Origin: an uncultured Ignavibacteria bacterium | Lineage (GTDB): Bacteria; Zixibacteria; MSB-5A5; CAIYYT01 | Assembly: GCA_964576925.1 (NCBI GenBank) | Contig: CAZNWJ010000010.1 | Coordinates: forward strand, 69,736 to 133,735 | Direction of reading: 5' to 3' | Length of the DNA stretch: 64,000 nucleotides | In this document: piece after piece, positions 7,854 to 32,042 of the stretch | How positions within the stretch are numbered: position 1 is the stretch's first letter | Layout of the letters: every line of letters starts with the position of its first letter | Position numbers and translations under genes: made by a program | The notes under the pieces: generated by a model | Seen by the model: only the letters and a program-made list of their open reading frames with translations | What the model was told of the DNA's origin: nothing | The model's database searches: none

Positions 7854-10100
7854 CTAACAGGGCGCTGGACCACCCGAGAAGATATAGCTGATTAAGTACA
7901 CCGCATCCGAAACCGTGATGATTCCGCTACAATCTGCATCACCGGCAAACAGCGGGCTGGGTGCCGGTCCGCCGCTGAAGATGTAGCCAATCAGATAAAC
8001 GGCATCGGAGATGTTCACCATGCCGTTGCCGTCCGCATCGCCTTTGACAAAGCTCTGCGGCTCAATCCGGATTTCGAAGTCCTTGGTGTCCGAGCCGCCG
8101 CTCACTCCGGTCGCTCGAATTGAGACCAAGAAGTTCCCCGAATCGCTCGGTGTACCGCTGATGATCCCGGTCGATGAACTCAATACAAGTCCGGTCGGAA
8201 GGCTTCCGCCCGCGATCTGGAACGTATACGGCTTGGTCCCGCCACGCACGATTACCGAGTCGCTGTAACTCACATTTTGTCCACCGGCCCGCAGGGTATC
8301 GTAGATGATATGCACCGCGTAGGCTTCCGTGCTTGTCGTCTTCAAAATCCAGTCATTGCGATCAATACTCACCGACGTAGGCGCAGAGCCGGTGACTTCA
8401 AATATGTAGTCCTGGTCGCGCTGCGTGTTGGGAACGCTGAAATCGTGATACGTACCGTTGTATACCGAGATATCGACACTCGGCATATCGAACACCAGGG
8501 GAGTCGTCGTCTGGAACTGCCTGATATGTACGTACACGCGGTACACGCCCGGACTGACTTGGTCATAAGTGTACGACACGGCATAGCGCGGATAGTACGT
8601 CCCGTAGATCCAGTCTTCGAAGAACGGATGCAGATCCATTCCTGTCACTTCTTCGCACAAATCGCGGAACCCCTCGGTTGTTACATCTTTCCACTTGAAG
8701 CGCGGATCGTCGTAGTAGGCCGCCAAGATATCAAAGAAATTCTCGTCGCCCACTACGCCGCGAAGCATGTGCAGCGCCCAGGCGCCTTTGTCGTAAACAC
8801 GCGAACTAAAGATCGCCCACACATCGGTCGTGTCGACGCAGTAAATCGATCCTCCCGAAGTGTAGCGCATACCGTTCATGTAATCGCGCAGCGCTGCGAA
8901 TCCACCGGTCGATTCAAACCACAACGCTTCAGTATACGAGGCAAAGCCCTCGTTCATCCAAATATGATGCCAGTCGCGGCAGGTAATCATATCCCCATAC
9001 CACTGGTGTCCCATTTCGTGGACGATGATCGATTGGTACATGGCGCTGCTGACAATCGACGTGTTTGTCTGGTGCTCCATTGCGCCGCCCCAGTTGAACA
9101 TCGACATCCCGTACTTTTCGTTAACAAACGGATAGAGCCCGAACAGGCGCGACAGCGTATCGAGCATCGGCACCGTCGGCGCGTAACCTGATTGCGCCGC
9201 TGCCAATTGCGACGGATACACCCAGAAATCCACCGGCATCGAATCAGTCGGCGTGTATTTGAACCAGTCGCGCCACGTCGAGTAATTCGACATCGCCAGG
9301 CTGATCAAATATGTGGCGATCGGGTAGCGCACCTTCCAGTAGGTCTCGCGCGTGCCGTTCCCCAGGTCGAGATTCCCGATCAACTTGCCGTTCGAACTGC
9401 AGAACAAATTGCTGGGATAGGTGATGATGATATCAACCGAATCCGCCTTGTCGTCCGGGTGATCCTTGCACGGCCACCAGGTGCGCGCCAGGTACGGCTC
9501 CGACAAGGACGAGATCACCGGATTGCCTCCGTAAGTCTCGAACGAGAAGGCTTGGAATCCGCCCTCGATCGGATGGCCGTTGTAGTAGGTCGAGACCGTA
9601 AAGACTTCGCCGCTGTCCTTTTGAACCGGCAGATTCACCGTCACGACATTCCCGTTTCGCGTATAGGTCGCCGGGGCGCCGTCGACGCGAATCGAATCAA
9701 TAATCATATTTGAGAACAGATCGATCTCGCAAAAGGTTACGCTGTCCTGGGTTGTCGTTGAAGTCATGTCAACCCCTGCGGTAATGATCTCCGTCGTGAT
9801 ATTGACGTTCATGTCAATGCGGTAGAAATTCACATCATATTGATATTGCGTCGGTATTGCCCCTCGCACAGCCGATTCCGCTTGTGCTTGGCGGACAGCC
9901 TCTAATCGCCTTGCCTTCGCGATTCGTTCCAAGTCGTGGGCTTCTCGAGATTCTCTAATCGCCTGTTCGATCGGAATCACCTCAAACTCATGCGCCATGA
10001 TAACGGCGGTGCCGACAATCGTCAGCAGCAGAACTAAGAGTGTGAAATACTTTAGAAATCTCAACGGTGCGGGCACGAAGTCCTCCTCTGTTGATGGCAC
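7854..10100 (-). CDS. Secreted/anchored M1-family zinc aminopeptidase with He_PIG-type Ig domain and C-terminal tandem dockerin-like module
   Basis: GAMEH(Q) exopeptidase motif; HEMGHQWYGD…WMNEGFASY (HExxH-X18-E). N-terminal hydrophobic anchor/signal. C-terminus is two repeats of D-x-D-x-N/S-G-x-x-x-I-S-D-AVYLI.YIFSGGPAP (dockerin type-I-like Ca loop plus helix). Confidence 0.85.
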   Translation of the reverse strand: MPSTEEDFVPAPLRFLKYFTLLVLLLTIVGTAVIMAHEFEVIPIEQAIRESREAHDLERIAKARRLEAVRQAQAESAVRGAIPTQYQYDVNFYRIDMNVNITTEIITAGVDMTSTTTQDSVTFCEIDLFSNMIIDSIRVDGAPATYTRNGNVVTVNLPVQKDSGEVFTVSTYYNGHPIEGGFQAFSFETYGGNPVISSLSEPYLARTWWPCKDHPDDKADSVDIIITYPSNLFCSSNGKLIGNLDLGNGTRETYWKVRYPIATYLISLAMSNYSTWRDWFKYTPTDSMPVDFWVYPSQLAAAQSGYAPTVPMLDTLSRLFGLYPFVNEKYGMSMFNWGGAMEHQTNTSIVSSAMYQSIIVHEMGHQWYGDMITCRDWHHIWMNEGFASYTEALWFESTGGFAALRDYMNGMRYTSGGSIYCVDTTDVWAIFSSRVYDKGAWALHMLRGVVGDENFFDILAAYYDDPRFKWKDVTTEGFRDLCEEVTGMDLHPFFEDWIYGTYYPRYAVSYTYDQVSPGVYRVYVHIRQFQTTTPLVFDMPSVDISVYNGTYHDFSVPNTQRDQDYIFEVTGSAPTSVSIDRNDWILKTTSTEAYAVHIIYDTLRAGGQNVSYSDSVIVRGGTKPYTFQIAGGSLPTGLVLSSSTGIISGTPSDSGNFLVSIRATGVSGGSDTKDFEIRIEPQSFVKGDADGNGMVNISDAVYLIGYIFSGGPAPSPLFAGDADCSGIITVSDAVYLISYIFSGGPAPC

Positions 10101-10340
10101 CGGGCCGGTCGCGGGGCAGGCTCAATGCGCAGGGTGACCAAAGTTGGTGACGAGGCTAAACTCACGCCTGGGCTTTTGACAGGAGTAGATCAGTCGTCGC
10201 AAGCTCGTCCACTTCTGGTGCGACGAATTTAGACCAATATACCCATTCTTGATTTTTAGTCAATAGTCGTTGTGTTGGCGCGTATGGTGTTGTCTTGTAA
10301 ATAGTTACAAAGAAGACAAATATTGTGGACAGATAGGAAA

Positions 10341-11594
10341 TTATTCGTATCGCAGCGCCACGATTGGATCAATTCTGGCCGCCCGCCATGCCGGATACAT
10401 CCCGGAGATTATGCCTGTCCCGGCCGACATCACCAGCCCGATCATTGCCCATGCGGGGGAGAAGAAGTAGCGCCATTCGAGTATCGTCGTCACCACCCAG
10501 CCCAGGCCTGCGCCGAATATGATGCCGATGCCGCCCCCCAACATCGTCAAAGTCGCCGCTTCAACCAGGAACTGGAACAGGATATTTTGCTTGCGCGCCC
10601 CCACCGCTTTCCGTACGCCGATTTCCCGAGTCCGCTGCGTCACTGCGACGAGCATGATGTTCATGACGCCGATCACACCCACCAACAGCCCGACGCACGC
10701 CACCGCTGTCGCCCCCAACTGCACTTTGGAAGTAATATTCGCTACCTCATCTTTGAATCGATCCTGCGTGAGGATCCCGAAGTTGTTCTCCTCGTCGGGG
10801 CGTACCTGCCGCACCCGTCGCAGGGCGTTGATCACCTGGTCCATCGCCTCGCCAAACTGCGTGCGCGACGTCGCGCTGCACATCAGCGTCACCGAGGTCG
10901 TATTCGGATACAGGCGGTCAAAAGTTGTCATCGGGATATAAATGAAGTCGTTCTCACTGATTCCGAACAAGTCGTCAACCCGCGCCTGAACACCGATCAC
11001 CGTGAACTTCCAGCCGTTGATCCGCACTTCCTTGCCTACCGCCTCTTCGTGCACATCAAACAACGCATCCGCAACTTCCGGCCCGATCACACAGACCATC
11101 GCTTCACGCCGCATGTCGTTCTCATCGATGAACCGTCCGAATGTGATCTCGCGGTTGGTAACCACCATCTGGCTTGGCCAGCAACCCCGGAAATCGTCCG
11201 GGTTGCGGATCGACTTGCTACCGTACTTGGCGATGTTGTTCATCGCGCGTTTCTGCGGCGCCACCGCCTTGACCAGCGGACACCATTCCTCGATCGCTTC
11301 GGCTTCGAGCATCGTGATATCTTTGCGCCGCCGCTGCTCCTCGGTCAAATTGTCAAAATCAGTGTGTTCATCCCATTGCGTGATGTACATCACGTTGCTG
11401 CCGATCTTGTCGATTGAGGACTCGGCGTATGCGGTAAAACCGTCCATGATCGTGTTCACCAGGATCACTGCGCCGACACCAACCATGACCCCGATTATCG
11501 TCATCAGACTGCGGAACTTGTTCGAGCGTACGGCATCCAGTGCCAGCCGCATCCCTTCGCGCGTCTCCCAAACACGCTGCGTCCATTTAGTCAT
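10341..11594 (-). CDS. FtsX-family ABC transporter permease (MacB-like, no fused ATPase)
   Basis: N-terminal TM, ~250-aa periplasmic domain, C-terminal FtsX 3-TM bundle; ends VALRYE. Confidence 0.85.
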   Translation of the reverse strand: MTKWTQRVWETREGMRLALDAVRSNKFRSLMTIIGVMVGVGAVILVNTIMDGFTAYAESSIDKIGSNVMYITQWDEHTDFDNLTEEQRRRKDITMLEAEAIEEWCPLVKAVAPQKRAMNNIAKYGSKSIRNPDDFRGCWPSQMVVTNREITFGRFIDENDMRREAMVCVIGPEVADALFDVHEEAVGKEVRINGWKFTVIGVQARVDDLFGISENDFIYIPMTTFDRLYPNTTSVTLMCSATSRTQFGEAMDQVINALRRVRQVRPDEENNFGILTQDRFKDEVANITSKVQLGATAVACVGLLVGVIGVMNIMLVAVTQRTREIGVRKAVGARKQNILFQFLVEAATLTMLGGGIGIIFGAGLGWVVTTILEWRYFFSPAWAMIGLVMSAGTGIISGMYPAWRAARIDPIVALRYE

Positions 11595-12810
11595 AGCTCA
11601 AGGCCTTGATCGGGTCAAAACGCGACGCGCGCACCGCAGGATACATACCAAAGAATAATCCCACCGCCATCGAGATACCGAACCCCAGCGTGATCGCCAG
11701 CGTGGTCGGCGTGACATAGATATCCAATAGGGAAGTCAGCACCTGCTCGCCGATCATCACGCCAAACAGAATCCCGGCCGACCCGCCCAACAGCGAGAGG
11801 ATCGTCGACTCGTACAGGAATTGTATCAGGATATGCCGCCGGCGCGCGCCGATCGACTTGCGAATACCGATTTCCCGGGTCCGCTCCGTTACCGAGATCA
11901 TCATGATATTCATGATCACGATCCCGCCGATAATGATCGACAGCAGCGGCAGCGAAATCATCACCACGCGAAATCCGCGTGTCAGGTCGTTGATGAAGCT
12001 CAGTATCGCATCCGGCGTCATAATCGTAAAATCATCCGCATCGTCGTATGAGATATGCCGCGCCGATCGCAGCACCGTTCGTACCTGGTCCATCGCCGGT
12101 TCGCGCCGTTCCATCGAAACTGCGCTGATCACGAGATTGACCGGATTGCCCGGCTGCTTGTAAATCTTCTGGTGCGTCGACAAGGGAATCGCAATAAACT
12201 CGTCCATGTCCTCGCCCAGCATCCCGCCCAGTTCCTCCGCCACGCCGATCACGACAAACTCGTTCTGTCCGATGCGAATTCTCTCGCCGATCGCGTTCAT
12301 CTCCTCAAACAGCCGTTCTTTCACCCGTTGCCCGATAAACGCGACCTGCTTGCGCCGGGCATCATCTTCCCAGGAAAGATAGCGGCCCGCCGCCACGTCC
12401 AGATCTCGCATCGCAAGCATGTTTGGTGTGTGTCCCTCGACCGACACCCACGGCATCCGCGTGTCCGCATATTTGACCATGTCCGATCCGTAGGCTTCCG
12501 CTCCCACTTCCGCACAATCGGGACAACCCTCCTCAATCGGCTCGATCAGTCCGCGCGTCAACTTCCGCCGTTTCATTCGCTCGAGGTATTCCTGCATCGT
12601 TAGACCGAAACCGAAACGCGTCACCATGAACGTGTTCGAACCCAGCGAAGCAAACGCGTCTTCGAGATTATTCTGCATCCCCTCAACCGTCGATACGATC
12701 GCGATTACCGAGGTTACCCCCATCGTCATCCCCAGCACGGTCAACGCCGAACGCAGGCGATTCGCCCACAGCGCAGCCAGTGACTCTTTGATCAGCGAGA
12801 AAAATACCAT
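11587..12810 (-). CDS. FtsX-family ABC transporter permease (MacB-like, no fused ATPase)
   Basis: Same architecture as 10341..11594; 8-nt overlap with it; ends KALSYD. Confidence 0.85.
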   Translation of the reverse strand: MVFFSLIKESLAALWANRLRSALTVLGMTMGVTSVIAIVSTVEGMQNNLEDAFASLGSNTFMVTRFGFGLTMQEYLERMKRRKLTRGLIEPIEEGCPDCAEVGAEAYGSDMVKYADTRMPWVSVEGHTPNMLAMRDLDVAAGRYLSWEDDARRKQVAFIGQRVKERLFEEMNAIGERIRIGQNEFVVIGVAEELGGMLGEDMDEFIAIPLSTHQKIYKQPGNPVNLVISAVSMERREPAMDQVRTVLRSARHISYDDADDFTIMTPDAILSFINDLTRGFRVVMISLPLLSIIIGGIVIMNIMMISVTERTREIGIRKSIGARRRHILIQFLYESTILSLLGGSAGILFGVMIGEQVLTSLLDIYVTPTTLAITLGFGISMAVGLFFGMYPAVRASRFDPIKALSYD

Positions 12811-12840
12811 AGCGCAGCGTCTTGTGCCAAACCGTCGTCT

Positions 12841-14169
12841 CTACTTCTCATTCATGCGGTCGAGCGAAGATTGCTCGATCGTCACGGCTTCACCGGCCTT
12901 GATCTTGCGTAAAGTCTGGTAGGAACCGGATATCACCGTGTCGCCCGGAGTTACGCCCGACAGCGCGACAATATTGCGTTCATCCGCGATCCCGGTGCTT
13001 ATCTCGACGAATTCCGCTTTCCCGCCGCGGATCACGAATACCCCCGTCTTCTTGGTCTTGTCGCTTTTCTTGCGCGAGCCGGCCTTGTCGGTCGCGGGAT
13101 CAGCTTGAGCAGCGTTGGCCTGTTGCACCAGGCCGCCATCTTCTTGCTTCGCCTCAGCTCTTGTCTTGAGTGAGTCAGGATCAAACTCCCGCGTAACTAA
13201 TGCTGCGTAAGGAACAAGGAGGGCGTCCTCAGCCTGGCTGGTTGTAATGTCTACCGTCGCCGACATCCCGGGACGGAAAGTCACTTCAGCGGCGTCAAAG
13301 CGCACCTTGACGCGAAAACTGGTAGTGTAATTGTCGGTCCCCTGGCCCGCCACCAGCGCCGAGTTGCCGATCTCCACGACCGTGCCGACAAAACTCGTGT
13401 CGCGGAACGCGTCCACCTTAATCTTGGCCTTCTGCCCGATCCCCACCTTGGCAATCTCGCTCTCGTCTACGTCGATCTCGACCTCAAACACCGACAGGTC
13501 GGCAATCGTCATCAGCGTCTGTCCCTGTGTGAATGCCGTCTGGGCCTGGGCGATTTCCCCGACTTCGACGCTCAGATATGTCAGTACACCGTCCATCGGG
13601 GCCCTGATCGATGTCTTGGAAAGATTGTCTTCGGCCTTTTCCAGTCTGGCGCGCGCCGTTTCTACCTGTGCCAGCGACGCCCTGTAGTTGGCCTCCGAGT
13701 TTTCAAAGTTGTAGCGAGCCGTGCTCGCGGCATTCTCCGAGCCAAGATTCTGCTCATAGAGCTTTCGCTGCCGCTCGGCTTCCAGCTTGTCGATCTCCAA
13801 TTGCGCCTTACCCGCCTCCGCTCGTGAAGATATCTCGTCGAGGCTATAACGCGCCTGCGACACATCCGACTGCAGCTGAATCGTGTCGAGTAATAACAAT
13901 AGGTCGCCGCGCGCAACCAGATCGCCCTCTTTGACATAGATCTTGATGATCTGGGCCGATACTTCCGCTGTGATGTCGACCTTGGTCTGCGGCTGGATGC
14001 GACCCGAGGCCGATACGATTTCTGAAATATCATCTCTATACGCCAGATCGGCCTGCACTGCCGTCGCCTCATTGCCGGAGCCCATGTTCATCGCAATGAC
14101 CAGGATCAGGACAACAACAACACCTAGCGTGATAAAAAGCGCCTTTTTCGATCGCCACTTAAAAGCCAT
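12841..14169 (-). CDS. Efflux transporter periplasmic adaptor subunit (HlyD/MacA-type membrane fusion protein)
   Basis: N-terminal TM anchor, long coiled-coil segment, beta-barrel/lipoyl-like C-terminal half; directly upstream of two FtsX permeases. Confidence 0.8.
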   Translation of the reverse strand: MAFKWRSKKALFITLGVVVVLILVIAMNMGSGNEATAVQADLAYRDDISEIVSASGRIQPQTKVDITAEVSAQIIKIYVKEGDLVARGDLLLLLDTIQLQSDVSQARYSLDEISSRAEAGKAQLEIDKLEAERQRKLYEQNLGSENAASTARYNFENSEANYRASLAQVETARARLEKAEDNLSKTSIRAPMDGVLTYLSVEVGEIAQAQTAFTQGQTLMTIADLSVFEVEIDVDESEIAKVGIGQKAKIKVDAFRDTSFVGTVVEIGNSALVAGQGTDNYTTSFRVKVRFDAAEVTFRPGMSATVDITTSQAEDALLVPYAALVTREFDPDSLKTRAEAKQEDGGLVQQANAAQADPATDKAGSRKKSDKTKKTGVFVIRGGKAEFVEISTGIADERNIVALSGVTPGDTVISGSYQTLRKIKAGEAVTIEQSSLDRMNEK

Positions 14170-14937: not shown

Positions 14938-15021
14938 CCCATCGCCAGGAATCGGTTCGGAATCCGGCGAATCTATCCTGCAGTCAGCCTTCAGTAGGGC
15001 AATGAAACTTCATTCCTGCCC

Positions 15022-15133: not shown

Positions 15134-18100
15134 ATGAATCATTGGTCAAGACCCGCATGGCTGTTTGCCATCGCATTGCTGGTAACCGCTTCTGCCATGG
15201 GCCCGGTCGGTGAAGCCTCACCCCGCGCCTGGACTATCGTGGCAACCTATGAGATTCCGGAGGGCGCCTCTGGCCTCGCCTGGGATGGTACCAACATCTA
15301 CTTCGGCATCTATGGTGTCAACGGCAGCAACGTCTACCGACTGAATCCCTCCAACGGTAGCTATGTCCTGCAATGTACCGGCACGCACGAGGATGCATAC
15401 GGTCTCACCTTTGACGGCACCAATCTCTGGACCACCGATCACCCCAGTTCTTCGCAGCCGGCCAAGGCAATGCAGTTTTCTTTGAGCGGGTCGTTGATTA
15501 CGCAGTTCAATCTGCCCGTGACATACATGTCCGGCATTGCCTACGACAACGGCAACTTCTGGGTAACTCGGTATTATCCCGACCCCGGAACCGTCTACAA
15601 GGTGAACTCCGCTGGCACCGTCCTTAAGCAATTCGCCGCTCCCGACAATCAGCCCTGGGACATCTGCCTGGCGAACGGCAACCTCTGGATCGCCGACTAC
15701 TGGGGCGACATGCTCTATCTTGTCGACAGCACGACCGGCGCGCTGCTCGACAGCCACGCCGCCGAAGACGTCGATCCTGCCGGAATTGTCTGGGACGGCA
15801 CACACCTTTGGTACTGCGACAACGGCGGCTCGAATAGTTTCGACAAGATCTACAAGATCAATCTCTCCGGCGCCGGGACTCCCGATATCGAAATCCCCGA
15901 AACAGATCACGACTTCGGCTCTGTGGTCCTTACATCGCCCGCGACCTGGCACTGCATCGTCCAAAATGTCGGCACTGCCGATCTACAAGTTGATAGCATG
16001 CTCATCAGCGGTCCGGCGAGCGTAACGAGTTCCGCCACCTTTCCGATGCTGATCGCAGCCGGCAACGTTGATACCATCTCGATAGTCTATCAACCCACGG
16101 TGATAGGGGCCATCTCTGCGACTGCGACGGTATTCTGCAATGATTTGATTACACCCACGGTTGGCCTGACCATGAGCGGTTTTGGCGTCAACTCCGGTCC
16201 CGATGCCACCCCCTTGGCCGATGAGCACGAGTATGGTAACGTCCGCATGCGTTCTTATCCACTCTGGACTCTGCTCATTCAAAACACAGGTACAGAACCT
16301 CTCTCAATCAGCTCCGTCTCGTCGACCGATCCGCAGTTCACAATCGACTCTCGCCTGGTGTTTCCGATCGTCGTCGACTTGCTCGACACGCTGCGTGTAC
16401 CCATCTGGTTCTATCCGCAGGCCCCAATTACTTACAAGACGACTATCATCATTGCCAGCAACGATCCCACCAGCCCGGCTCAACTCGACCTCGGTGGTAC
16501 CTGTGTCTTGGAGATGCAGGAACTCGGCGACACGCTCTGGAGCTACACCGTCGACACAGGCTTCGACAACAGCCCCAAGGCAATCATGCCGATTGCTGAT
16601 GTCAACGGCGACTCTATCCCGGACGTGATCATTTGCACCGAAGACAATTATATTCGCGCCTTTAATGGCAACGCCTCCGGCAGCGGCGATATCATCTGGG
16701 AGCATTATATCTCGGGCGGCTCGATCTATAATCAGAACAGCTTGATCGTCATCCCGGACATTGACGAGGACGGCTACCCCGACGTGATTGTCGGCTCCTC
16801 CTGGGGCGGCAGGCTAATTCGCGCCATCTCGGGACGATTCGGCACAACCATCTGGACCCACACGACCACCAACTACGGAGATGGCGGTTCAATCTATCAA
16901 GTTGATGCCCGCTTCGACTTCAACAACGACGGCTCTGTCGATGTCCTCGCCGCCACCGGCGACGATGGCAATGACACCGGTCCTCGCCGTGTCTATTGCT
17001 TAAACGGGCTCTCCGGCGTGCCCATCTGGGAATACCCGGTCGGCGCACCGGTCTTCGGCGTCATCGGCGTCTCTGACTTCACCGGCGATGGTCGCCCCGA
17101 TGTTGTCGCCGGCGCATCCAATGCCCTCGAAACACAAGGTATCGCCTATGGCCTCAATGGTGTCAACGGCGCCTTCGTTTGGAGCTACCCGACTCCCGGC
17201 TCTTCCGTCTGGGCGATTGAACAACTTGGAGACGTCAACGGCGACACGACTCCCGATGTCATGATCGGCGACTTCAGTATCACAACCGGCAACCTTTTCA
17301 TCCTTAACGCCCGCACCGGCGGCATGCTGCATCAGCAGTCGGCAATCGGCTCCGTCATTCGCCTCGAGCCGATCGGCGACATCAACAGCGACGGCTATGT
17401 CGATATCATGCCTTCACACGCCGCTGCAATGGCCTATGCGGTCAACGGCAAGGACTGCAGCAACATCTGGTCGCAACCGCTCCCCGACAAACCCTGGTGC
17501 GTTTCTGCCGCCAATGACCTGAATTCCGATGGCTTCAAAGACATCATGCTCGGGACATTGTTCAGTCAGAACTACGCCAGCTTCGTTAATGCGGTCGGTG
17601 GCGCTACCATGCTCAGCATCCCCTTCTCGTCGCCCATCGATGCGCTCCATTCGATCCCTGACATAGTCGGCGACGTCTCCATGGAAATGGTAGCTGGCGG
17701 CCGGGAAGGCGAAATCGTATGCTTCTCCGGCGGAACGGCGGCCTCACCCAATCAGGCTCCGTTGCAGGCCTCCGATCCAGAGCCGGCGGATGGTGCTCCC
17801 AACGTGCCAACATCGGCTGTGCTTTCCTGGACCGGCGGCGACCCCGATGCTGGAGATGTCGTGTTTTATGATGTCTACCTTGGCACTTCACTGCCGCTCA
17901 ACCTGGTTAGTCCAAACCAATCGACGACGACCTTTGCACCCGGTGCCCTGCAGGACGACGAGACCTACTTCTGGCGTGTTGACACCAAAGACCAGTTGGG
18001 CTTGATGACCGGCGGCACTACCTGGTCATTTTCGACGGCCGCGGGCTATCTCTGCGGCGACGCCGACGGCAGCGGCATCATCACAATCTCCGATGCAGTC

Positions 18101-18256
18101 TACCTGATCGGCTACATCTTCGGCGGTGGCCCGGCGCCCAACCCCCTGGCGGCCGGGGACGCCGACTGCACCGGCATCGTCACAATTTCCGACGCCGTCT
18201 ACTTGATTAGCTACATCTTCGGCGGCGGCCCTGCGCCTTGCGCCACTTGCCCCTGA
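15134..18256 (+). CDS. Large secreted protein: N-terminal beta-propeller, two Ig-like domains, 7-bladed FG-GAP-type beta-propeller, FN3 domain, C-terminal tandem dockerin-like module
   Basis: Signal peptide (AIALLVTASAMG). Repeated D-x-N/D-x-D-G-x-x-D-[VI] FG-GAP-like Ca loops (DVNGDSIPDV, DIDEDGYPDV, DFNNDGSVDV, DFTGDGRPDV, DVNGDTTPDV, DINSDGYVDI, DLNSDGFKDI). FN3-like segment. C-terminal GDADGSGIITISDAVYLIGYIFGGGPAP x2. Confidence 0.8.
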   Translation: MNHWSRPAWLFAIALLVTASAMGPVGEASPRAWTIVATYEIPEGASGLAWDGTNIYFGIYGVNGSNVYRLNPSNGSYVLQCTGTHEDAYGLTFDGTNLWTTDHPSSSQPAKAMQFSLSGSLITQFNLPVTYMSGIAYDNGNFWVTRYYPDPGTVYKVNSAGTVLKQFAAPDNQPWDICLANGNLWIADYWGDMLYLVDSTTGALLDSHAAEDVDPAGIVWDGTHLWYCDNGGSNSFDKIYKINLSGAGTPDIEIPETDHDFGSVVLTSPATWHCIVQNVGTADLQVDSMLISGPASVTSSATFPMLIAAGNVDTISIVYQPTVIGAISATATVFCNDLITPTVGLTMSGFGVNSGPDATPLADEHEYGNVRMRSYPLWTLLIQNTGTEPLSISSVSSTDPQFTIDSRLVFPIVVDLLDTLRVPIWFYPQAPITYKTTIIIASNDPTSPAQLDLGGTCVLEMQELGDTLWSYTVDTGFDNSPKAIMPIADVNGDSIPDVIICTEDNYIRAFNGNASGSGDIIWEHYISGGSIYNQNSLIVIPDIDEDGYPDVIVGSSWGGRLIRAISGRFGTTIWTHTTTNYGDGGSIYQVDARFDFNNDGSVDVLAATGDDGNDTGPRRVYCLNGLSGVPIWEYPVGAPVFGVIGVSDFTGDGRPDVVAGASNALETQGIAYGLNGVNGAFVWSYPTPGSSVWAIEQLGDVNGDTTPDVMIGDFSITTGNLFILNARTGGMLHQQSAIGSVIRLEPIGDINSDGYVDIMPSHAAAMAYAVNGKDCSNIWSQPLPDKPWCVSAANDLNSDGFKDIMLGTLFSQNYASFVNAVGGATMLSIPFSSPIDALHSIPDIVGDVSMEMVAGGREGEIVCFSGGTAASPNQAPLQASDPEPADGAPNVPTSAVLSWTGGDPDAGDVVFYDVYLGTSLPLNLVSPNQSTTTFAPGALQDDETYFWRVDTKDQLGLMTGGTTWSFSTAAGYLCGDADGSGIITISDAVYLIGYIFGGGPAPNPLAAGDADCTGIVTISDAVYLISYIFGGGPAPCATCP

Positions 18257-20589: not shown

Positions 20590-22485
20590 TTACTTGTCGA
20601 TGCCGACACCAATCTCGAACGGCCCCGGCTCCGTTGAATCCGGTTTTGCACTGATCCAGCGCGCGTTGTTTCTTGCTGCTGTGCCGGAATAACTATCGTT
20701 GCCTCCGCCGTCGGCAAACACGCCGAATGTATACAGAAACGCTCTTGCCCCTTGCTCGAGTCCCCGCGCGCCGCCGACATTGAATCCGCCTGAAGCTTGG
20801 TAGTTGTCGTCACCGCTCCAATCGTGAAAGATACCGATCCCCTGAAAATTGCCGCCGCCCAGGGACAATCCCGGTGCCAGATACGTGTCGTTTCCGGCGC
20901 GCTCGTTAAGATAGCCAATCGTGAAGTCGTGCCCCGATCCCAACGACATGTTCATCGTCGCGTTGTATATGTCATCTCCGGCAAAATCGTCAAGATACCC
21001 GATCGCGAAATGCGCCCCTGACCCGAGCGCGTACCAAACACTGTAGTAGTTGTCAGCGCCATCGCCGTCCAGGAGCATCCCGACTGCAAACCAGTAGCCG
21101 CAACCTTGGGCAAACAACCCCGCCGAGTACCTGTCGTTGCCGGCAACATCGCACAGGATCCCTACGCCACCAGCCCAACTGTGGCCGTCAATAAAATCAG
21201 CCCGTCGCCCAAACGCTGCACCCTGCGCTAGCGACGAATTGTGCTCTTGTGTCTGTTGTCCGGGGCTGAAAAGAGTCGCGTCCTCAGCCACGTACTTGTC
21301 GTCGCCGGTAAGATTTATACACAGCCCGCAGCCTTTCGTATACCCGTAACCCTGCGATGTCGCCCAGCAGTATAAGGAGTCATTGCCGGCAACGTCTGAA
21401 CAAATTCCTGCGCCGAAACTTCCGCTCCCTTGCGACAGCGTGCGCGAGCTGTAGACGTCATCCCCGCTTTGGTCAAGCATCAGCCCGACGCCGAACACAC
21501 CGGCGCCCTGCGCGATATGCACAGCCTCGTAGCGATCGTTACCGCTCTTGTCGATCACAACAGCCATCCCGAGTACCGCTCCGCCGATTCCCGGCCGGGT
21601 CGAGTCCGGCGATACATAGCGGTCGTTCCCTGAGAGATCGATGATCGCGCTGAGGGGATAGTTGTTTGCATACCCGGAAATCTGGTAAACGTCGTTGCCG
21701 CCCGGATCGAGAATCAACAGCGGAGGTGTACCGTACGCAAAATCATCGTCACCGCTTGTCCCGAAGACAATCAAGCCGTAGGGCGTTGCAATCTCCGTGA
21801 AGGCTGCCGGGAACGCGCAATACTCCAGCGAGTCGGCGGCCCGCTTCAGTGCTTCACCCAGGTCCTGCGCGCCGCCGATCAAACGGTTGAAATCCAATTG
21901 TGTGGCGTACATCTCAACGACATCGTGATACTCCTGGCTGTCCGCCACGAAATATTGAAATAGTTGATTGCGAAATCGCGAGTTGGCAAAACCGAGCAGC
22001 ACTTTTCCGAAACTAAACTGCGTGTCGGCCACCAACTCGTATATCAATCCGACCTTCGCCCGCATCCGCTCCAATTCCGGCTGCATCATCTTTCCGTTTC
22101 CGCGCACCAACTGCGTAAACGCCAGAGAATCGCTGGGCCGAAGGTACTTCTGGAGCGGGTCATCTATCAAGCCGCGGCGTACCGGGCAATCGATCTTGCG
22201 CCCGGCGTCCGCCAGCAAAGCGCTGATATTATCGCAAGCCACGGTGTAAGCCTCCAGATTCATCTGGCCGTACTTGGGTAGCTTAAAGGGATTTTTGTGC
22301 AGCATCGTGAAAAAGGACAAGCGCCACAAGTCGCCGCCCCAGGTGGCCATCTCGTCCTGATCGATCTTGATATCCTCCGCCGTCATTCCTAACTGCGCCA
22401 TCGCCGAGTCAATCAGGCTTAGGTCTTGTGCAAGAATGGCATCAGGCGCCAGCAATAACAGCGCTGCGAGCAATATCCGCTTCAT
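20590..22485 (-). CDS. Secreted repeat protein: ~250-aa N-terminal domain followed by ~12 tandem ~26-aa 'D-x-x-G-N/D-D-x-Y … Q-G-x-G … G-x-G' repeats (beta-helix/solenoid-like)
   Basis: Signal peptide MKRILLAALLLLAPDAILA. Repeats read directly: SGNDRY, SGDDVY, AGNDSLY, TGDDKY, AGNDRY, GADNYY, AGDDIY, AGNDTY, SGDDNY, GGNDSY. Confidence 0.7.
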   Translation of the reverse strand: MKRILLAALLLLAPDAILAQDLSLIDSAMAQLGMTAEDIKIDQDEMATWGGDLWRLSFFTMLHKNPFKLPKYGQMNLEAYTVACDNISALLADAGRKIDCPVRRGLIDDPLQKYLRPSDSLAFTQLVRGNGKMMQPELERMRAKVGLIYELVADTQFSFGKVLLGFANSRFRNQLFQYFVADSQEYHDVVEMYATQLDFNRLIGGAQDLGEALKRAADSLEYCAFPAAFTEIATPYGLIVFGTSGDDDFAYGTPPLLILDPGGNDVYQISGYANNYPLSAIIDLSGNDRYVSPDSTRPGIGGAVLGMAVVIDKSGNDRYEAVHIAQGAGVFGVGLMLDQSGDDVYSSRTLSQGSGSFGAGICSDVAGNDSLYCWATSQGYGYTKGCGLCINLTGDDKYVAEDATLFSPGQQTQEHNSSLAQGAAFGRRADFIDGHSWAGGVGILCDVAGNDRYSAGLFAQGCGYWFAVGMLLDGDGADNYYSVWYALGSGAHFAIGYLDDFAGDDIYNATMNMSLGSGHDFTIGYLNERAGNDTYLAPGLSLGGGNFQGIGIFHDWSGDDNYQASGGFNVGGARGLEQGARAFLYTFGVFADGGGNDSYSGTAARNNARWISAKPDSTEPGPFEIGVGIDK

Positions 22486-23796: not shown

Positions 23797-25914
<2,118 letters not shown>

Positions 25915-27032: not shown

Positions 27033-27059
27033 GTTCAAAATGAAGTGACAGCCTGCCGG

Positions 27060-30000
27060 CTATTTTCCACCACAGGGAGCCGGCCCCCCGGTGAAGATAT
27101 ACGAAATGAGATAAACGGCGTCAGAGATGTTCACGATGCTGTTGCAATCGGCATCTCCTGCTTCCATCGGCTCCGGTGCCAGGCCGCCGGTGAAGATGTA
27201 CCCGATCAGGTAGACCGCATCGCTGATGTTCACGATCTCGTCGCCATTTGGATCACCAGCCATGTAAGTGTCCCCTACACGCAGCGTGACGGGAATCTCA
27301 AGCAGCGGCAATATCGGATCATTCGAGGTAACCTCGATCGCGCCGCCACAGGTGCTGTCACCCATGTCGAGAGCATCAAAATACAGCCAGATATTCGCCG
27401 ACGAGTTCGGTGCAATTTCTCCCGCCATCGGACTGGCATGCAGCCAGGTCGGAATCGGATCGCCCAGCGCGATCGCCAATTGATTGTGCAGGTACGCCGC
27501 GTTGTAGACGACCATGAGTCCGTCGCTGCCGCCCGCATCCTCCATACCGATCGTGCAGCCGAGGACGTCGAACCCCGGAGCAATCGCTTGGTACTGGATC
27601 TTCACGTTGCCGTCCTGCGCTAAGATCACCTGTGCCGTGATGACGTCGCCGGGATTCACCAGGCTCTCGTATTCCGGGTAGTTCAGGAACGAAACCACTA
27701 ACTGGCCATCAACGAACTGGTACACCACGCGTCCGCCGGGGTTGTCGGCGTCGGCAATGTTCAGATCATCCCAACACCAGGCAATGATATTGTTCGGCGT
27801 CGCCGTGTTCGGCAGTCCGGTGTTGTTGCGGCTGCCGAAATCGGTGGTGGCGCCGAATCCGATGAAACCATTCCCGCTCACATAGAATTCGGTGTAGTTG
27901 TTGCTATAGAACGGGAAGGTAAAGCCGATTGGGAACGGTCCGACGAAATTGTCGTCGGTCAATCCCGTGATGTCGGTACCTGTCGACGCGATGTCGATCC
28001 ACTCGTACTGCGGACCTTGCGGATCATCGGAGTCAATCCAGATATTACCGGCGCCATCAGGACCGCCGCTTCCCTTCGTGACCTCGGCGAAGTACGGCTC
28101 TTCTGTCGTACCCTTGTCGGATTCATCGATTCGGTAACCGAGCGGCACGGGCGCGGGTTCTGCCGTCGCTTTTGCCAGCACCGGCTTGCCGTAAGTCTCG
28201 CACAACAACTCGAAACTGAGCTTCCCAAGTCCGGTGTTGTTAATCGCAACCGCCACGGAATCGCGGCCGCCGATCGGGATCGACTCGCTGACCGAACTCG
28301 GATTCACCGCCATCTGCGGTGCGTGTACATGCAGCCCGACATTGACATTGCCGGTCGCATGAGTCGGATCATTCGTCGCGTACGCCAACAGACCCGAATA
28401 GTCACCCGGATTCATGTTCGTGGCGTTAAACGTCACTGGATACACCAGGCTATCGCCGATCGGTATGTAATACTGGGTCGTCGCGCACTGGATCCAGCTC
28501 ACTCCCGGCGTGAACCTTACCCGCAGCGTCGCCTCGCCAACATTCCTGATCACCAGGTTCTGTTGGTGCTGAGTGTCTTCAACAAGGCTGTCAGCAAGCG
28601 AAGTCGTCGACATCTGCATCGTCGCCGTAGCACCGGAACCGCTGACATAACCCTTCAACGAAATGTCATCGATGCTCCAGCCGTTGTACTGCACGGAACC
28701 GTCGGTCGGACCCAATCCGAACCGAATCTGGAACTCGGGATTGTTGTCCGCCACCGCGGTCAGTTCGTATACCGACTCCGTCCAGGTAGCTTCGCTGTTC
28801 GTCGCGCCGTTCGCATAGAGCTGTATCCATTCGGTTCCGTTGAAGACCTCAAGATACGCATGGTCGTACGACGACGACTCGCAACCCAACTGGTGGTAAT
28901 AGGTCATGAAAATGCTGGTGGCATTGCTGCAATCGATAATCGGCGAATAAACCCAGTTCGTTGCGCTGATATTGGCGCTGTAGGAAGCGCTCGTCGTCAG
29001 GTCGTTGCCAAGAATCATGTTCTCCGGACCGGGAGTATGGTCATCCGACGGGTCGGGACTTCCCGATGTTCCAGTACCGCCGATCGCCGGACCAATCTGC
29101 CACTCGGAAGTGCTGCCCAATCCGGTCCAGCCCTGTTCGACCGTGAAGTCTTCCAGGAAGAACACCACCCGGTCGCCCACTGTGATCGAGAAGTACTGCG
29201 TCACGGCGAATCCGCCGCTGCCGACGATGTCCAGCTTGCAATTTACGCCGTGCCCCATCGGCGTGTTGGCTGCGGCACTGACGGTGAAGACATCGCCGCT
29301 GTTCGACGCCGTACCGCCGTTTGCAGCTATCGTGCCAAACGTACCGTTCGCATCACTAATGGTTAGATAATTGTCGAGTTCGCTGATCGTGGCCGTTGTA
29401 TTGAAAGCCGTCCCCGTGCCGTTGTTCTGTACGGTCACGACAACGTTTGCTGTCTCCCCCGGGTCGATCATGCCATTGTTGTTACCTGTCGGATCGCTGA
29501 CCGCGAACGAGACATACACCACGTTCGGCGCGTGCACCGTCACTGTGAATGAACTCTCCCAGGTATCTTTCTCCGTCCCGTTTGCGGTCACAGTGAACGT
29601 CACTTTGTGGCCGTCGGGAGTCAACGGACTTACATTAAAGGCGAAAGCATCGGCAATATTGACGTTGCCAAAATTCCCGGCAATCGAACCATAGTTTTCG
29701 GAATCATCAGTGATCGTAATGTAAGAGTCTTCTGCCGAGAGCGTCGCGACGACGTCCTGGGCGTCATCCGGACCGACGTTCTGAAGCTGCAGGCCCAGCA
29801 CGATCGATTCGCCAAAGTCAATCAAGCCGTCGCCGTTTCCGGACGCGTCGTTGATCGCGTGACTCTGGTAAATGACGTATGGACCGGATGGCGCAATCAC
29901 CTGCACCGTGCCGATATACGGAACGCGATTCTGCGCCGTGACAATGACATCAGCAGTCACCGGCTGGTCAAACGGCGTCACCGCCATTTGCACCATTCCG

Positions 30001-32042
30001 GTCTGGTCGACATAACCGGCGCCATGAAGCACGCCGTTGGCCGACAGACCCACATACGAACCCGGATCGGCATTGACCGTAAACGTCGTGGAGGTCATCA
30101 GCAGCGAACCCGCATAGCTGACGTTATTCACCGTCGGGACTCTCAGGTAAGTCGTTACCGACGGGTCGCCCATCAAGTGGTACATCTCCCAGTAGTAAGC
30201 CTTACGCGAACTGCTGGACTGCTGTACCGCCAGGTTGCCACACATATTGATCGCGTAGTTCGTCACGTAGTGCGACGACACCGGTTCGCCATGATCGTGG
30301 AACATCCCGTCGTAGGCACCTAGCTTGGTCGCATCGTACGGTGGACCGGCGGCCACAACCGCCTTGCCGCCGCCGACACCCCACCAGTAGTCTTCATCCC
30401 AGTACGAGTTGTTGCTCGCGCCGATATAGCCCACGCCGCCCTTATTGGCTGCCTGCAACCAGGCCTCGGCAAATGACGGCGTGCTCTCTCCAAACGTGCT
30501 CGACAAACAGCAGTTGCCGATGCCCAGCCCGTACTTGTGCGCGTTCGTCAAGTTATTGATATCGCTGACCGTGAACGACGGATCACCCCAGCTGTCGTGC
30601 CCGCAATGCGCGGTGTAGTTCGCAATGCCCACACCATTGCTGACCGAGGCGATTACCGCCGCCGAAGCACCCGGAGCATCCGATGCCGGATAAAGCCACA
30701 CATGCGGCGTGATCCCGTGGGCGGCGTTGAAGTAAAGATTGGTACCGTAGTTGATCTGGCCGTTACCGTAAGTCGGCGCATACGACGCGTCGACACCGGC
30801 AATCAAAGTGACCTCATTCAGGTACGCCGGATTCGGCATCGTGTACTGCTCGTATTCCAGCGTCTTGTCGATTTGTGGTTGAAGCTGCGCCGTATTCTGC
30901 GCGGAGAAACGGCCGTAGTAGACTTCTGGAATATTGTCACCGGTGTATTCGGCATAACGCAAATCGGTAATATGCGAGCCCGCCGAGCCGGACCAGGCCG
31001 GAATCTGCGGTGTGTCGCCCACAAACAGCACGAAGGTCGGCGCCGGATCCTCAACCGTGCCGGCAGTATACAATCCCTGGAGATAGGTCTTAATCGCCGT
31101 CGTCGTCGAGCCGATGACGTCGGTGTAAGCAACGATGACTTTGAAGCCCTTCTTGATCTTCCAGGCGATCAACGGCTGCAACTGCGCCTCGAACATCCGC
31201 GCCGACACGATCACCATCTTGATCGGGTACTTCGTGAGATCGGCCTTCTCGTTTAGCGCCAGCATCTCATAGTTGGCCAGTTGCGCGTAGGCCGCCTCAA
31301 AGGCTGGCGAATAGGTCGCTTCAAACTGCTTCTGGGTCGCAGTCCAATCGGGATGATCGAAATTCAACCGGACCGTCACCTGCTTTTGCACACGGATCCG
31401 GTTCGTCGTCGCGTCGTACTCAATCGGTGCAACCGATACATGAGCTACGCGAAGCCCGCGCATCACACCTTCGATCGAAGTGGAGGTCACCGGCAGGGAA
31501 TAGTACCCGGCTTGCTGATACACCGCCTGCTTGAATTCGAACGGCACCGAGTTCGGGTCGTCCGACTTCGATAGCGAAGGCTGGGCGGGCATAATCACGC
31601 TCGTAACTCCATATGTCGCCAGATCGTACTCTGCCGTCTCGGTGGACAACACCTCCGCCTTCAGTTCCGCTCCTTCCGGGACGGCAATCAACTGATTGGC
31701 GGTCGGCAGCGCCGGCTCACCCACGCGGCTCGAAAGATCCAGCCCCTTCGCGCTCAAAACGGTAAACTCGCCCGCCCGCGTTGTCACCGGGACAATCTCC
31801 AACTCGCCGACATCCACACGAATCGTCATGCCTGTCGGGTCGTGTCCCAGAATCGTAATTCCACTGTTGGCATCGCTCACCTTGATCGTGTTGGCTGCCA
31901 ACGCCGTTGCTGATAACAATACCAGCAATAGCAGACTCACCTTGGTAGCAAGCTTGCTCAAAGGTACCTCCAATGATGCTTGGGATTCTTGTTGGGGATT
32001 CCCAATAATTGAGTGAAACCGGAAATGTTGCGTCATTCTCAA
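27060..32042 (-). CDS. Very large secreted peptidase C25 (gingipain-like cysteine peptidase) with multiple Ig-like/beta-sandwich domains and C-terminal tandem dockerin-like module
   Basis: Gingipain-type His motif Y-T-A-H-C-G-H-D-S-W-G and Cys motif G-I-G-N-C-C-L-S-S-T-F. C-terminal GDPNGDEIVNISDAVYLIGYIFTGG…GDADCNSIVNISDAVYLISYIFTGGPAPC. A probable true start is an internal TTG (…LSKLATKVSLLLLVLLSATALA, about 27 codons in) preceded by GGAGG, giving a clean signal peptide. Confidence 0.8.
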   Translation of the reverse strand: MRMTQHFRFHSIIGNPQQESQASLEVPLSKLATKVSLLLLVLLSATALAANTIKVSDANSGITILGHDPTGMTIRVDVGELEIVPVTTRAGEFTVLSAKGLDLSSRVGEPALPTANQLIAVPEGAELKAEVLSTETAEYDLATYGVTSVIMPAQPSLSKSDDPNSVPFEFKQAVYQQAGYYSLPVTSTSIEGVMRGLRVAHVSVAPIEYDATTNRIRVQKQVTVRLNFDHPDWTATQKQFEATYSPAFEAAYAQLANYEMLALNEKADLTKYPIKMVIVSARMFEAQLQPLIAWKIKKGFKVIVAYTDVIGSTTTAIKTYLQGLYTAGTVEDPAPTFVLFVGDTPQIPAWSGSAGSHITDLRYAEYTGDNIPEVYYGRFSAQNTAQLQPQIDKTLEYEQYTMPNPAYLNEVTLIAGVDASYAPTYGNGQINYGTNLYFNAAHGITPHVWLYPASDAPGASAAVIASVSNGVGIANYTAHCGHDSWGDPSFTVSDINNLTNAHKYGLGIGNCCLSSTFGESTPSFAEAWLQAANKGGVGYIGASNNSYWDEDYWWGVGGGKAVVAAGPPYDATKLGAYDGMFHDHGEPVSSHYVTNYAINMCGNLAVQQSSSSRKAYYWEMYHLMGDPSVTTYLRVPTVNNVSYAGSLLMTSTTFTVNADPGSYVGLSANGVLHGAGYVDQTGMVQMAVTPFDQPVTADVIVTAQNRVPYIGTVQVIAPSGPYVIYQSHAINDASGNGDGLIDFGESIVLGLQLQNVGPDDAQDVVATLSAEDSYITITDDSENYGSIAGNFGNVNIADAFAFNVSPLTPDGHKVTFTVTANGTEKDTWESSFTVTVHAPNVVYVSFAVSDPTGNNNGMIDPGETANVVVTVQNNGTGTAFNTTATISELDNYLTISDANGTFGTIAANGGTASNSGDVFTVSAAANTPMGHGVNCKLDIVGSGGFAVTQYFSITVGDRVVFFLEDFTVEQGWTGLGSTSEWQIGPAIGGTGTSGSPDPSDDHTPGPENMILGNDLTTSASYSANISATNWVYSPIIDCSNATSIFMTYYHQLGCESSSYDHAYLEVFNGTEWIQLYANGATNSEATWTESVYELTAVADNNPEFQIRFGLGPTDGSVQYNGWSIDDISLKGYVSGSGATATMQMSTTSLADSLVEDTQHQQNLVIRNVGEATLRVRFTPGVSWIQCATTQYYIPIGDSLVYPVTFNATNMNPGDYSGLLAYATNDPTHATGNVNVGLHVHAPQMAVNPSSVSESIPIGGRDSVAVAINNTGLGKLSFELLCETYGKPVLAKATAEPAPVPLGYRIDESDKGTTEEPYFAEVTKGSGGPDGAGNIWIDSDDPQGPQYEWIDIASTGTDITGLTDDNFVGPFPIGFTFPFYSNNYTEFYVSGNGFIGFGATTDFGSRNNTGLPNTATPNNIIAWCWDDLNIADADNPGGRVVYQFVDGQLVVSFLNYPEYESLVNPGDVITAQVILAQDGNVKIQYQAIAPGFDVLGCTIGMEDAGGSDGLMVVYNAAYLHNQLAIALGDPIPTWLHASPMAGEIAPNSSANIWLYFDALDMGDSTCGGAIEVTSNDPILPLLEIPVTLRVGDTYMAGDPNGDEIVNISDAVYLIGYIFTGGLAPEPMEAGDADCNSIVNISDAVYLISYIFTGGPAPCGGK

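Follow-up and report, generated by a model that had tools for sequence, protein, structure and literature searches.

Three secreted proteins and their shared C-terminal doublet

Three genes within the window, by which we mean the whole 64,000-nucleotide stretch of contig CAZNWJ010000010.1 from an uncultured Ignavibacteria bacterium, encode secreted proteins that end in the same tandem module, a doublet resembling the dockerins of cellulosomes. The carriers are an M1 aminopeptidase, a multidomain beta-propeller protein and a gingipain-like C25 cysteine peptidase. They and their modules lie at the following window coordinates (aa, amino acids; Ig, immunoglobulin-like).

7854..10100, minus strand: M1 aminopeptidase, secreted, with a He_PIG Ig domain and a C-terminal dockerin doublet; 748 aa from a GTG start
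7857..8045, minus strand: dockerin module of the M1 protein; repeat 1 at 7959-8039, linker at 7941-7958, repeat 2 at 7860-7940, terminal Cys at 7857-7859
15134..18256, plus strand: propeller protein, secreted, 1040 aa; NHL, choice-of-anchor-D Ig, FG-GAP beta-propeller and FN3-like domains, C-terminal dockerin doublet
18053..18253, plus strand: dockerin module of the propeller protein; pre-loop Cys at 18053-18055, repeat 1 at 18059-18139, repeat 2 at 18158-18238, tail CATCP at 18239-18253
27060..32042, minus strand: C25 gingipain-like cysteine peptidase, secreted; propeptide, C25 catalytic domain, C25 Ig, further Ig-like and other domains, dockerin doublet
27063..27260, minus strand: dockerin module of the C25 protein; repeat 1 at 27174-27254, repeat 2 at 27075-27155, tail CGGK at 27063-27074

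A sequence-only reading of this DNA had proposed that the three open reading frames (ORFs) each end in tandem copies of one unit, and their translations and coordinates confirm it. The doublets are 62-68 aa long and consist of two 27-aa units joined by a 6-aa linker; the tandem arrangement stands, and the unit size of ~25 aa given in that reading is replaced by a register of 33 aa. In the M1 protein the units span aa 688-714 and 721-747, the protein ends as KGDADGNGMVNISDAVYLIGYIFSGGPAP-SPLFAG-DADCSGIITVSDAVYLISYIFSGGPAP-C, and the module is of a subtype with two cysteines (2-Cys), Cys4 of loop 2 and Cys28 only. The propeller protein (units at aa 976-1002 and 1009-1035; end CGDADGSGIITISDAVYLIGYIFGGGPAP-NPLAAG-DADCTGIVTISDAVYLISYIFGGGPAP-CATCP) has the four-cysteine (4-Cys) subtype, and the C25 protein (aa 1597-1623 and 1630-1656; end AGDPNGDEIVNISDAVYLIGYIFTGGLAP-EPMEAG-DADCNSIVNISDAVYLISYIFTGGPAP-CGGK) is again 2-Cys. 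A regular-expression motif scan of all six frames found the repeat unit nowhere else in the window.

Apart from this module the carriers are unrelated, as had been proposed: the best pairwise BLASTP E-value outside it was 0.06, and the Pfam contents differed. The M1 protein matched Peptidase_M1 (E = 1.9e-27), Peptidase_M1_N, He_PIG and Dockerin_1; the C25 protein matched Peptidase_C25 (E = 1.6e-57), Propeptide_C25, Peptidase_C25_C and Dockerin_1; and the propeller protein matched FG-GAP_3, FG-GAP, HYDIN_VesB Ig, DUF1573 and NHL, with a 69-bit match to NCBIfam choice_anch_D. Each translation begins with a hydrophobic, signal-peptide-like segment, which in the M1 protein may be a signal or an anchor. 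The earlier description of all three as giant was overstated for the 748-aa M1 protein, and the length of 1660 aa given for the C25 peptidase is probably 1633 aa. The TTG start listed at 32042 appears to lie too far upstream; because a database protein of 1633 aa (P0090) is 100% identical, the true start is probably at 31961, directly before the signal peptide.

The three modules share 74-82% protein and 69-75% nucleotide identity, and they use different codons at 25-29 of the 46-51 positions where the residues are identical. Since conservation of the peptide goes along with scrambled synonymous sites, it is, as judged from codon usage, purifying selection on the peptide that keeps the modules alike, and not recent copying. 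The same scrambling rules out recent gene conversion or domain shuffling as the source of the similarity. A chance or compositional motif was also rejected as a reading of the doublet.

A divergent dockerin with paired cysteines

All three C-termini gave full-length matches to the Pfam hidden Markov model (HMM) Dockerin_1 (PF00404), beginning at model position 1 or 2 and ending at position 56 of 57 (1-56 in the M1 and C25 proteins). The scores were 25.7 bits for M1, 24.5 for C25 and 19.3 for the propeller protein, whose copy alone falls under the gathering score (GA) of 22.9. A family profile built from the three window modules and 63 homologs retrieved solved type I dockerins with E-values from 3.8e-8 to 1e-3, the best of them (E = 3.8e-8) being the double dockerin of the Clostridium thermocellum cellulosomal serine protease Clo1313_0689 (8X39). 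NCBIfam contained no model for the module. The calcium-binding loop had been predicted to be followed by a helix, and an AlphaFold2 model of the propeller module (mean predicted local distance difference test score, pLDDT, 84.8; core >90) agrees with this: its helices, at 25-37, 45-48 and 58-70, make up two loop-helix units plus a short helix in the linker. In a Foldseek search of the PDB, the top 33 matches of this model were all dockerins, with target-normalised template modelling (TM) scores of ~0.5-0.8 and root-mean-square deviations mostly of ~2 Å.

The module is widespread beyond the window. A scan of species-representative genomes returned at least 573 pattern matches, at least 562 of them confirmed as module copies, mostly in Zixibacteria metagenome-assembled genomes; in one related genome the ~240 kb sampled encode at least 28 different carriers. 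Subsequent comparisons used the best 76 loci of the matches listed, from 17 assemblies (1.21 Mb, or 1.275 Mb with the window; ~5% of each genome), which contain 163 module-bearing ORFs. Dockerin_1 was matched by 30 of 39 carrier families, with a best E-value of 1.1e-9. The fit to the calcium-binding loop at positions 1, 3, 5, 9 and 12, first noticed in the window, extends to both repeats of 155 unique modules: D1 is present in 99-100% and D/N3 in 100%, position 5 is S, N, T or D, position 9 is T, N or S, and D12 is present in 100%. Thus neither an absence of dockerin HMM matches nor a loss of the calcium-loop residues was found. Taken together, the profile matches and the predicted fold make it almost certain that the module is a divergent member of the type I dockerin family.

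Its architecture is uniform across these genomes. In 146 of 155 copies the two loops lie 33 aa apart, and in 154 of 162 cases the module forms the extreme C-terminus, the protein ending 28-33 aa past the start of loop 2. Complete carriers (n = 144) range from 73 to 1915 aa (median 675) and fall into 39 unrelated homology groups; their genes are often clustered in tandem, with seven at locus L017 and six each at L036 and L075. Orthologs retain their subtype, since the 2-Cys dockerin is kept in M1 orthologs at L046 and L048 and the 4-Cys dockerin in propeller orthologs at L002, L003 and L004. The nearest homologs of the module are labelled Candidatus Zixiibacteriota and already carry the NCBI name 'dockerin type I'. 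With the C25 homologs, which bear the labels Zixibacteria or GN15 and include the identical P0090, they point to a Zixibacteria metagenome-assembled genome as the most likely source of the window. The genomes richest in the module are in many cases labelled 'uncultured Ignavibacteria' (TPA assemblies; e.g. L001-L004, L006-L008), with proteins closest to Zixibacteria-labelled sequences, and the labels may be imprecise. At L078:4467-6181, the same region as L011, a Transposase_mut gene is immediately followed by the gene for a 118-aa protein consisting only of a dockerin (P0001). This gene resembles what would remain of a carrier gene after interruption by a transposon, and the arrangement is repeated on a second assembly (L079).

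Besides its almost constant place at the extreme C-terminus, two features set the module apart from clostridial dockerins. A near-invariant GGPAP turn follows each helix, and the cysteines occur in pairs. Cys4 of loop 2, found in 97% of copies, co-occurs with Cys28 directly after the second GGPAP (counts 148/2/0/5, Fisher p = 3e-8), and a cysteine two residues ahead of loop 1, Cys(-2), co-varies with the final cysteine of a C-x-x-C(P) tail (126/0/9/20, p = 1e-18), the copies counted not being phylogenetically independent. The window proteins follow the same rule: the propeller module has all four cysteines, and those of M1 and C25 lack both members of the outer pair. Because the two pairs co-vary, we infer that they may form two disulfide staples, one inner and one joining the ends of the module. 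Such disulfides would fit a periplasmic or extracellular location.

Positions 10/11 and 17/18 reportedly set the cohesin specificity of clostridial dockerins. Here they read I-S and I-N, are strongly conserved and are alike in both repeats; the near-invariant positions on the helix face that the repeats share are I10-S11, V14, I17 and position 18. Several of the variable module positions are characteristic of the genome. Position 18 is N/N in most genomes, A/A in one assembly, and G (repeat 1)/S (repeat 2) in all three window proteins. That three otherwise unrelated proteins agree here despite scrambled synonymous sites is expected of a shared partner, and the genome-characteristic residue is thus suggestive of a genome-specific binding partner common to the carriers.

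These conserved positions also bear on another account of the module, a calcium- and disulfide-stabilised C-terminal cap that protects against proteolysis or unfolding and has no specific partner. The carriers are proteases in a protease-rich milieu and the putative staples suggest selection for stability, as such a cap would predict. It would have no need, however, of near-invariant surface positions alike in both repeats across 39 unrelated families, nor of genome-characteristic residues at a known specificity position, and it would not be expected to be swapped with anchoring signals as described below. We regard this explanation as very improbable.

Cargo and alternation with other C-terminal signals

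The sequence-only reading held that the tagged proteins are proteases rather than carbohydrate-active enzymes (CAZymes), and a Pfam survey of one representative from each of the 39 carrier groups, covering the top 25 of 60 families, supports this: the enzymes are mostly peptidases. The largest group, with 31 members, combines Peptidase_M43, TSP_3 and He_PIG. Further enzymes belong to the families M14, M4, M28, M1, PAD_porph (the Porphyromonas-type peptidyl-arginine deiminase), PhoD, CotH and GSDH, and the non-catalytic domains include TSP_3, He_PIG, fn3, Big_9, propellers, beta-helix, Laminin_G_3, LVIVD, LTD and FG-GAP. No catalytic family of the glycoside hydrolase (GH), polysaccharide lyase (PL) or carbohydrate esterase (CE) classes, and no Cohesin, was among these top 25 of 60 families. 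The type IX secretion system (T9SS) of Porphyromonas gingivalis exports gingipains (C25), the peptidyl-arginine deiminase PPAD and the M14 carboxypeptidase CPG70; our carrier list, together with C25, resembles that cargo. A second M1-family peptidase in the window (59303-61633, plus strand, 776 aa) has a signal peptide and no dockerin, T9SS C-terminal domain (CTD) or other recognisable tag, so not every secreted peptidase of this genome is tagged.

One window protein carries a different C-terminal signal and served as a comparator.

61733..62383, minus strand: cupredoxin-domain protein with a T9SS-type CTD, from Pfam matches

The assignment of a T9SS-type CTD to this protein holds, with matches to Cupredoxin_1, FlgD_ig (E = 4e-12), Por_Secre_tail (32.2 bits, GA 27) and CHU_C; relatives of its CTD occur at L073, L074, L030, L034 and L011. 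The dockerin-like tag is likewise distinct from it, as had been supposed: both coexist in this and related genomes, and the module has no CTD-family match. T9SS CTD was accordingly rejected as the identity of the module, since none of the three proteins matched a CTD-family HMM and the predicted fold is helical. A PEP-CTERM or IPTL-CTERM-type signal was rejected as well, as the ends GGPAPC, GGPAPCATCP and GGPAPCGGK contain neither a hydrophobic stretch nor a transmembrane helix.

The relation between these signals is seen in the C25 family. The C25 peptidase was compared at its C-terminus with its 120 best homologs (49-100% identity, labelled Zixibacteria or GN15). The dockerin doublet ends at least 64 of the 120, more if divergent variants are counted; ~25 have a T9SS CTD (PF18962 with or without PF13860, some named 'T9SS type A sorting domain'), three have an IPTL-CTERM-like transmembrane anchor (IPTLSQWGL...), and ~9 have a single dockerin-like unit followed by a tail. 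The single-unit ends (P0119, P0133, P0139, P0144, P0151, P0159, P0164, P0165, P0202) read AGDVNGNCxFNGIDITYxVxYFKG and then CPxCPP, after which come ~30 aa rich in Pro, Ser and Gln. Because homologous peptidases alternate between a dockerin, a T9SS CTD and an IPTL-CTERM-like anchor, the dockerin would appear to be an alternative to surface-sorting or anchoring signals that occupies the anchor slot, which supports a role in retention or anchoring. The propeller protein also bears a 'choice-of-anchor D' domain.

This alternation is at the same time the main argument for a rival explanation, that the doublet is chiefly a secretion or sorting signal read by a dedicated outer-membrane machinery, in the manner of the T9SS CTD. 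The near-invariable position at the extreme C-terminus, the fixed terminal motif GGPAPC-xx-CP, and a cargo (C25, PPAD-like deiminase, M14 carboxypeptidase) that mirrors the Porphyromonas T9SS cargo would all suit such a signal. The module itself fits it poorly: it has no Por_Secre_tail or CHU_C match, lacks the C-terminal hydrophobic helix of CTERM signals, and is predicted to adopt a helical dockerin fold and not the beta-sandwich of a CTD. No secretion system is known to recognise a dockerin, the loci show no linkage of dockerin genes to a conserved machinery gene, and one carrier (at L051, described below) bears an internal copy of the module besides the terminal one. We therefore consider a sorting signal improbable.

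The putative docking partner and comparison with known systems

A published model for a related situation exists in 'Ca. Stygibacter' (Cloacimonadota), in which C25 and S8 peptidases, along with GH18 and GH57 enzymes, are proposed to dock through their C-terminal dockerins to a 3,755-aa multi-cohesin scaffoldin that bears a carbohydrate-binding module (CBM) and a T9SS CTD (Williams et al. 2021, PMC8542988). Our preferred reading, to which we give modest credence, is that the putatively calcium-binding and probably disulfide-stapled dockerin of Zixibacteria is a general docking or retention tag whose symmetric helix faces bind a conserved, most likely cohesin-like partner. That the module docks or anchors its carrier at all is probable; that a cohesin-like domain is the partner we propose more tentatively.

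The proposed sequence of events is as follows. Tagged hydrolases, chiefly peptidases, would be exported through Sec by way of the N-terminal signal peptides readable in the translations. The module would then fold in the oxidising periplasm or outside the cell, bind two calcium ions, as the conserved ligands imply, and be locked by up to two disulfides, as the cysteine co-variation implies. The helix faces of both repeats may bind one conserved partner per genome, and this binding may keep the enzymes surface-bound or gathered in an assembly outside the cell. The partner would most likely be a cohesin-like domain, as in cellulosomes and the Cloacimonadota model.

The window itself contains no cohesin, as the sequence-only reading had stated: Pfam searches of 34 ORFs yielded none, and a custom cohesin HMM reached a best E-value of 4.4 on the window's six-frame translation. 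This HMM was grown from a PDB-verified CipA cohesin seed through 150 mutually diverse cohesin proteins and iterated to 352 domains, and it was run against the window and all loci (1.275 Mb) translated in six frames. It gave only two weak matches in total (E ~0.003), both inside dockerin-bearing proteins. A single CipA cohesin query found no match in the loci DNA, and a screen of 277 secreted proteins that lack a dockerin and have at least 250 aa revealed no internal repeats of at least 70 aa.

Candidate partners emerged among the carriers themselves.

L051:7016-10207, plus strand: 1064-aa protein with a Sortilin/BNR beta-propeller, an internal dockerin (aa 774-827), a cohesin-like domain (aa 836-995) and a terminal dockerin (aa 999-1064)
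L036:3013-3894, L009:72-893, L016:5059-5853, L018:11073-11891 and L011:6325-7062: family of small proteins (~245-295 aa) with a signal peptide, a Cys-rich cohesin-like domain of ~165 aa and a dockerin doublet

The L051 protein is among the few cases with an internal copy of the module. Its candidate domain matched Pfam Cohesin at 16.5 bits (E = 0.01; model positions 17-119 of 139; GA 24.1), and a 308-aa protein at L042:9347-10270 reached 23.9 bits against the same GA (E = 5e-5). The L051 domain is homologous to the five small secreted proteins (phmmer E = 2e-17 to 2e-8), which have no Pfam match of their own. For calibration, queries were aligned by hhalign with our own cohesin alignment: the L051 domain gave 87% (E 4e-6), the L042 protein with its ortholog 42% (E 3e-4) and the small family alone 9% (E 0.0035), against 0.1-0.9% (E 0.07-0.6) for ten control beta-sandwich domains of window proteins. 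A six-sequence profile of the cohesin-like family had no match among solved structures, and of the metagenome scans one was without a match and another returned a single ortholog. By these profile comparisons, cohesin-like domains are present in related genomes, and they are single, sub-threshold and so far always fused to a dockerin.

Several observations weigh against the preferred reading. No multi-cohesin scaffoldin was found in the 1.275 Mb, a weak negative since this is ~5% of each genome. No gene family recurs beside the dockerin genes, the commonest neighbours being regulators, M16, HtrA and S8 peptidases, and TonB. Every cohesin-like match is under the Pfam gathering score and lies on a dockerin-bearing protein, and the small family is linked to Cohesin only transitively. 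The position-18 signal is partly confounded by recent paralogy and by the selection of loci. A dockerin also leaves the crossing of the outer membrane in a diderm unexplained, although the same is true of every model.

The same data can be read as a dockerin fold that works without cohesin, anchoring its carriers to an outer-membrane or S-layer protein, to lipopolysaccharide (LPS), to capsule glycan or to the substrate, with no scaffolded complex. Of 1004 genes called in the sampled DNA, 158 encode a dockerin, compared with seven weak cohesin-like domains, and no scaffoldin accompanies them in the 1.275 Mb. The helix faces (I, V, Y, L, I, Y, I, F) are also unusually hydrophobic compared with clostridial dockerins, and many non-cellulolytic organisms have dockerins without scaffoldins, according to Peer 2009 as cited in PMC9012536. 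On the other side, every solved close relative of the module binds cohesin, the cohesin-like domains in related genomes stand clearly apart from the control beta-sandwich domains, and the missing scaffoldin counts for little at ~5% of each genome. We judge a non-cohesin anchor unlikely, while giving it more weight than a sorting signal or a protective cap.

We return to the preferred reading, a docking tag with a cohesin-like partner. What the sequence-only reading had envisaged, a cohesin-dockerin-like complex built around proteases, is thus borne out in part. Protease cargo and a dockerin tag are there; cohesin and scaffoldin were not found in the 1.275 Mb, and in their place are only sub-threshold cohesin-like domains fused to dockerins. 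In the small family the dockerins have V or I followed by T or A at positions 10/11, in motifs such as 'TDITD' and 'NIAD', and not I-S, a change compatible with adaptors of a second specificity. A more speculative and rather unlikely extension is a protease-centred 'proteolysome' on the diderm surface without a multi-cohesin scaffoldin, in which small adaptors of cohesin-like domain plus dockerin, with altered specificity, would link tagged peptidases in a daisy chain or network, the dockerin replacing T9SS-CTD retention for most exo-enzymes.

Pfam annotation of the rest of the window showed MacB/FtsX-type ABC transporter genes, a radical-SAM enzyme, DprA, a helicase, ApbE, DUF3570, chemotaxis and two-component proteins, LPS genes and the second, untagged M1 peptidase. 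The gene at 20590-22485 (minus strand), located between dockerin genes, encodes a 631-aa secreted protein with ~12 tandem repeats of ~23-25 aa ('sGNDxY...G.G..G.G', beta-helix-like); it was set aside as a scaffold candidate, having no Pfam match and one homolog (L061) in the related loci. The M1-dockerin gene is flanked by five MacB/FtsX-type permease genes, one ABC ATPase gene and one gene for an HlyD-type membrane-fusion protein (167-7781, plus strand; 10341-14169, minus strand), an unusual density of MacB-like transporters. At 54828-58707 (minus strand) are an O-antigen ligase/Wzy-like gene, a Wzz chain-length determinant and a GT9 heptosyltransferase; these polysaccharide genes fit an LPS-bearing diderm envelope, which is relevant to the surface route of the tagged enzymes.

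The concept of a peptidase-dockerin system is not new, because the Cloacimonadota model was published in 2021 (PMC8542988) and NCBI already names the Zixibacteria proteins 'dockerin type I'. In our literature search no paper connected dockerins or cohesins with Zixibacteria. The new elements are the GGPAP variant with its putative cysteine staples, the expansion of this variant across the phylum and its near-exclusive protease and hydrolase cargo, together with the alternation with T9SS and IPTL-CTERM-like tags and the divergent proteins that combine a cohesin-like domain with a dockerin.

Zixibacteria are widespread uncultured bacteria of sediment and soil that are thought to recycle detrital protein. 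If a shared docking tag does hold their peptidases, extracellular proteolysis in these organisms would be cell-associated and co-localised, and would not depend on freely diffusing enzymes; the cohesin-dockerin principle would then reach a protease-dominated system in a diderm. The divergence of the cohesin-like domains implies that standard Pfam thresholds may miss such partners. A compact and highly uniform dockerin variant, putatively locked by disulfides, could also interest engineers who use cohesin-dockerin pairs.

Among characterised systems, the clostridial type I dockerins (1OHZ_B, 4UYP_B, 3UL4_B, 4DH2_B) provide one close comparison. They share with the Zixibacteria module a duplicated F-hand with a 12-residue calcium loop (D1, D/N3, 5, 9, D12) and helix, a length of ~60-70 aa, a mostly C-terminal position and the profile and fold matches, as well as an internal two-fold symmetry compatible with dual binding. 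The Zixibacteria module differs in the GGPAP turn that follows each helix and in up to four conserved cysteines, which probably form two disulfides; we know of no canonical dockerin with such paired disulfides. Its recognition positions are hydrophobic or neutral (I-S and I-N), where the clostridial ones are S-T and K-R. Its host is a diderm of an uncultured phylum, its cargo consists of peptidases, and no canonical cohesin matches in the 1.275 Mb. The C. thermocellum protease Clo1313_0689 (8X39 / 8X3A) is likewise a protease with dockerin modules. Unlike the proteins described here, it is an accessory part of a CAZyme-dominated monoderm cellulosome, has a double dockerin (two complete modules) and is without cysteine staples.

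The Bacteroidota T9SS CTD system resembles that of Zixibacteria in its kinds of cargo (C25, PPAD, M14) and in the extreme C-terminal position of the tag, and homologous C25 peptidases of Zixibacteria alternate between the two tags. In Bacteroidota the CTD is a secretion signal with a beta-sandwich fold, which is cleaved off and gives way to a lipid anchor, whereas the module described here is predicted to be a helical calcium-binding dockerin and matches no CTD-family HMM.

Dockerin repertoires outside cellulosomes (archaea, anaerobic methanotrophs (ANME), amylosome, mucinolysome) offer a further parallel, with many dockerins in organisms that do not degrade cellulose, functions inferred from domains, and scaffoldins that are often absent or small (PMC9012536). 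The discussion of such dockerins, which covers their occurrence on peptidases and in the absence of scaffoldins, goes back to Peer et al. 2009 (cited in PMC9012536 and PMC8542988). The repertoires named include Pfam-significant cohesins, sometimes up to five per protein; the cohesin-like domains of Zixibacteria are sub-threshold, single and dockerin-fused.

Another close counterpart is 'Ca. Stygibacter', also a diderm of a candidate phylum in the FCB group. Its enzymes have signal peptides and C-terminal dockerins, among them C25 and serine peptidases, T9SS CTDs occur in the same organism, and a role in polypeptide degradation is stated (PMC8542988). In Zixibacteria the 1.275 Mb contained no recognisable multi-cohesin scaffoldin, and the top 25 of the 60 Pfam families on carriers included no GH catalytic domain. 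The dockerin repertoire of Zixibacteria far exceeds that of Stygibacter, with at least 28 in one genome and a total of at least 562 across reference genomes.

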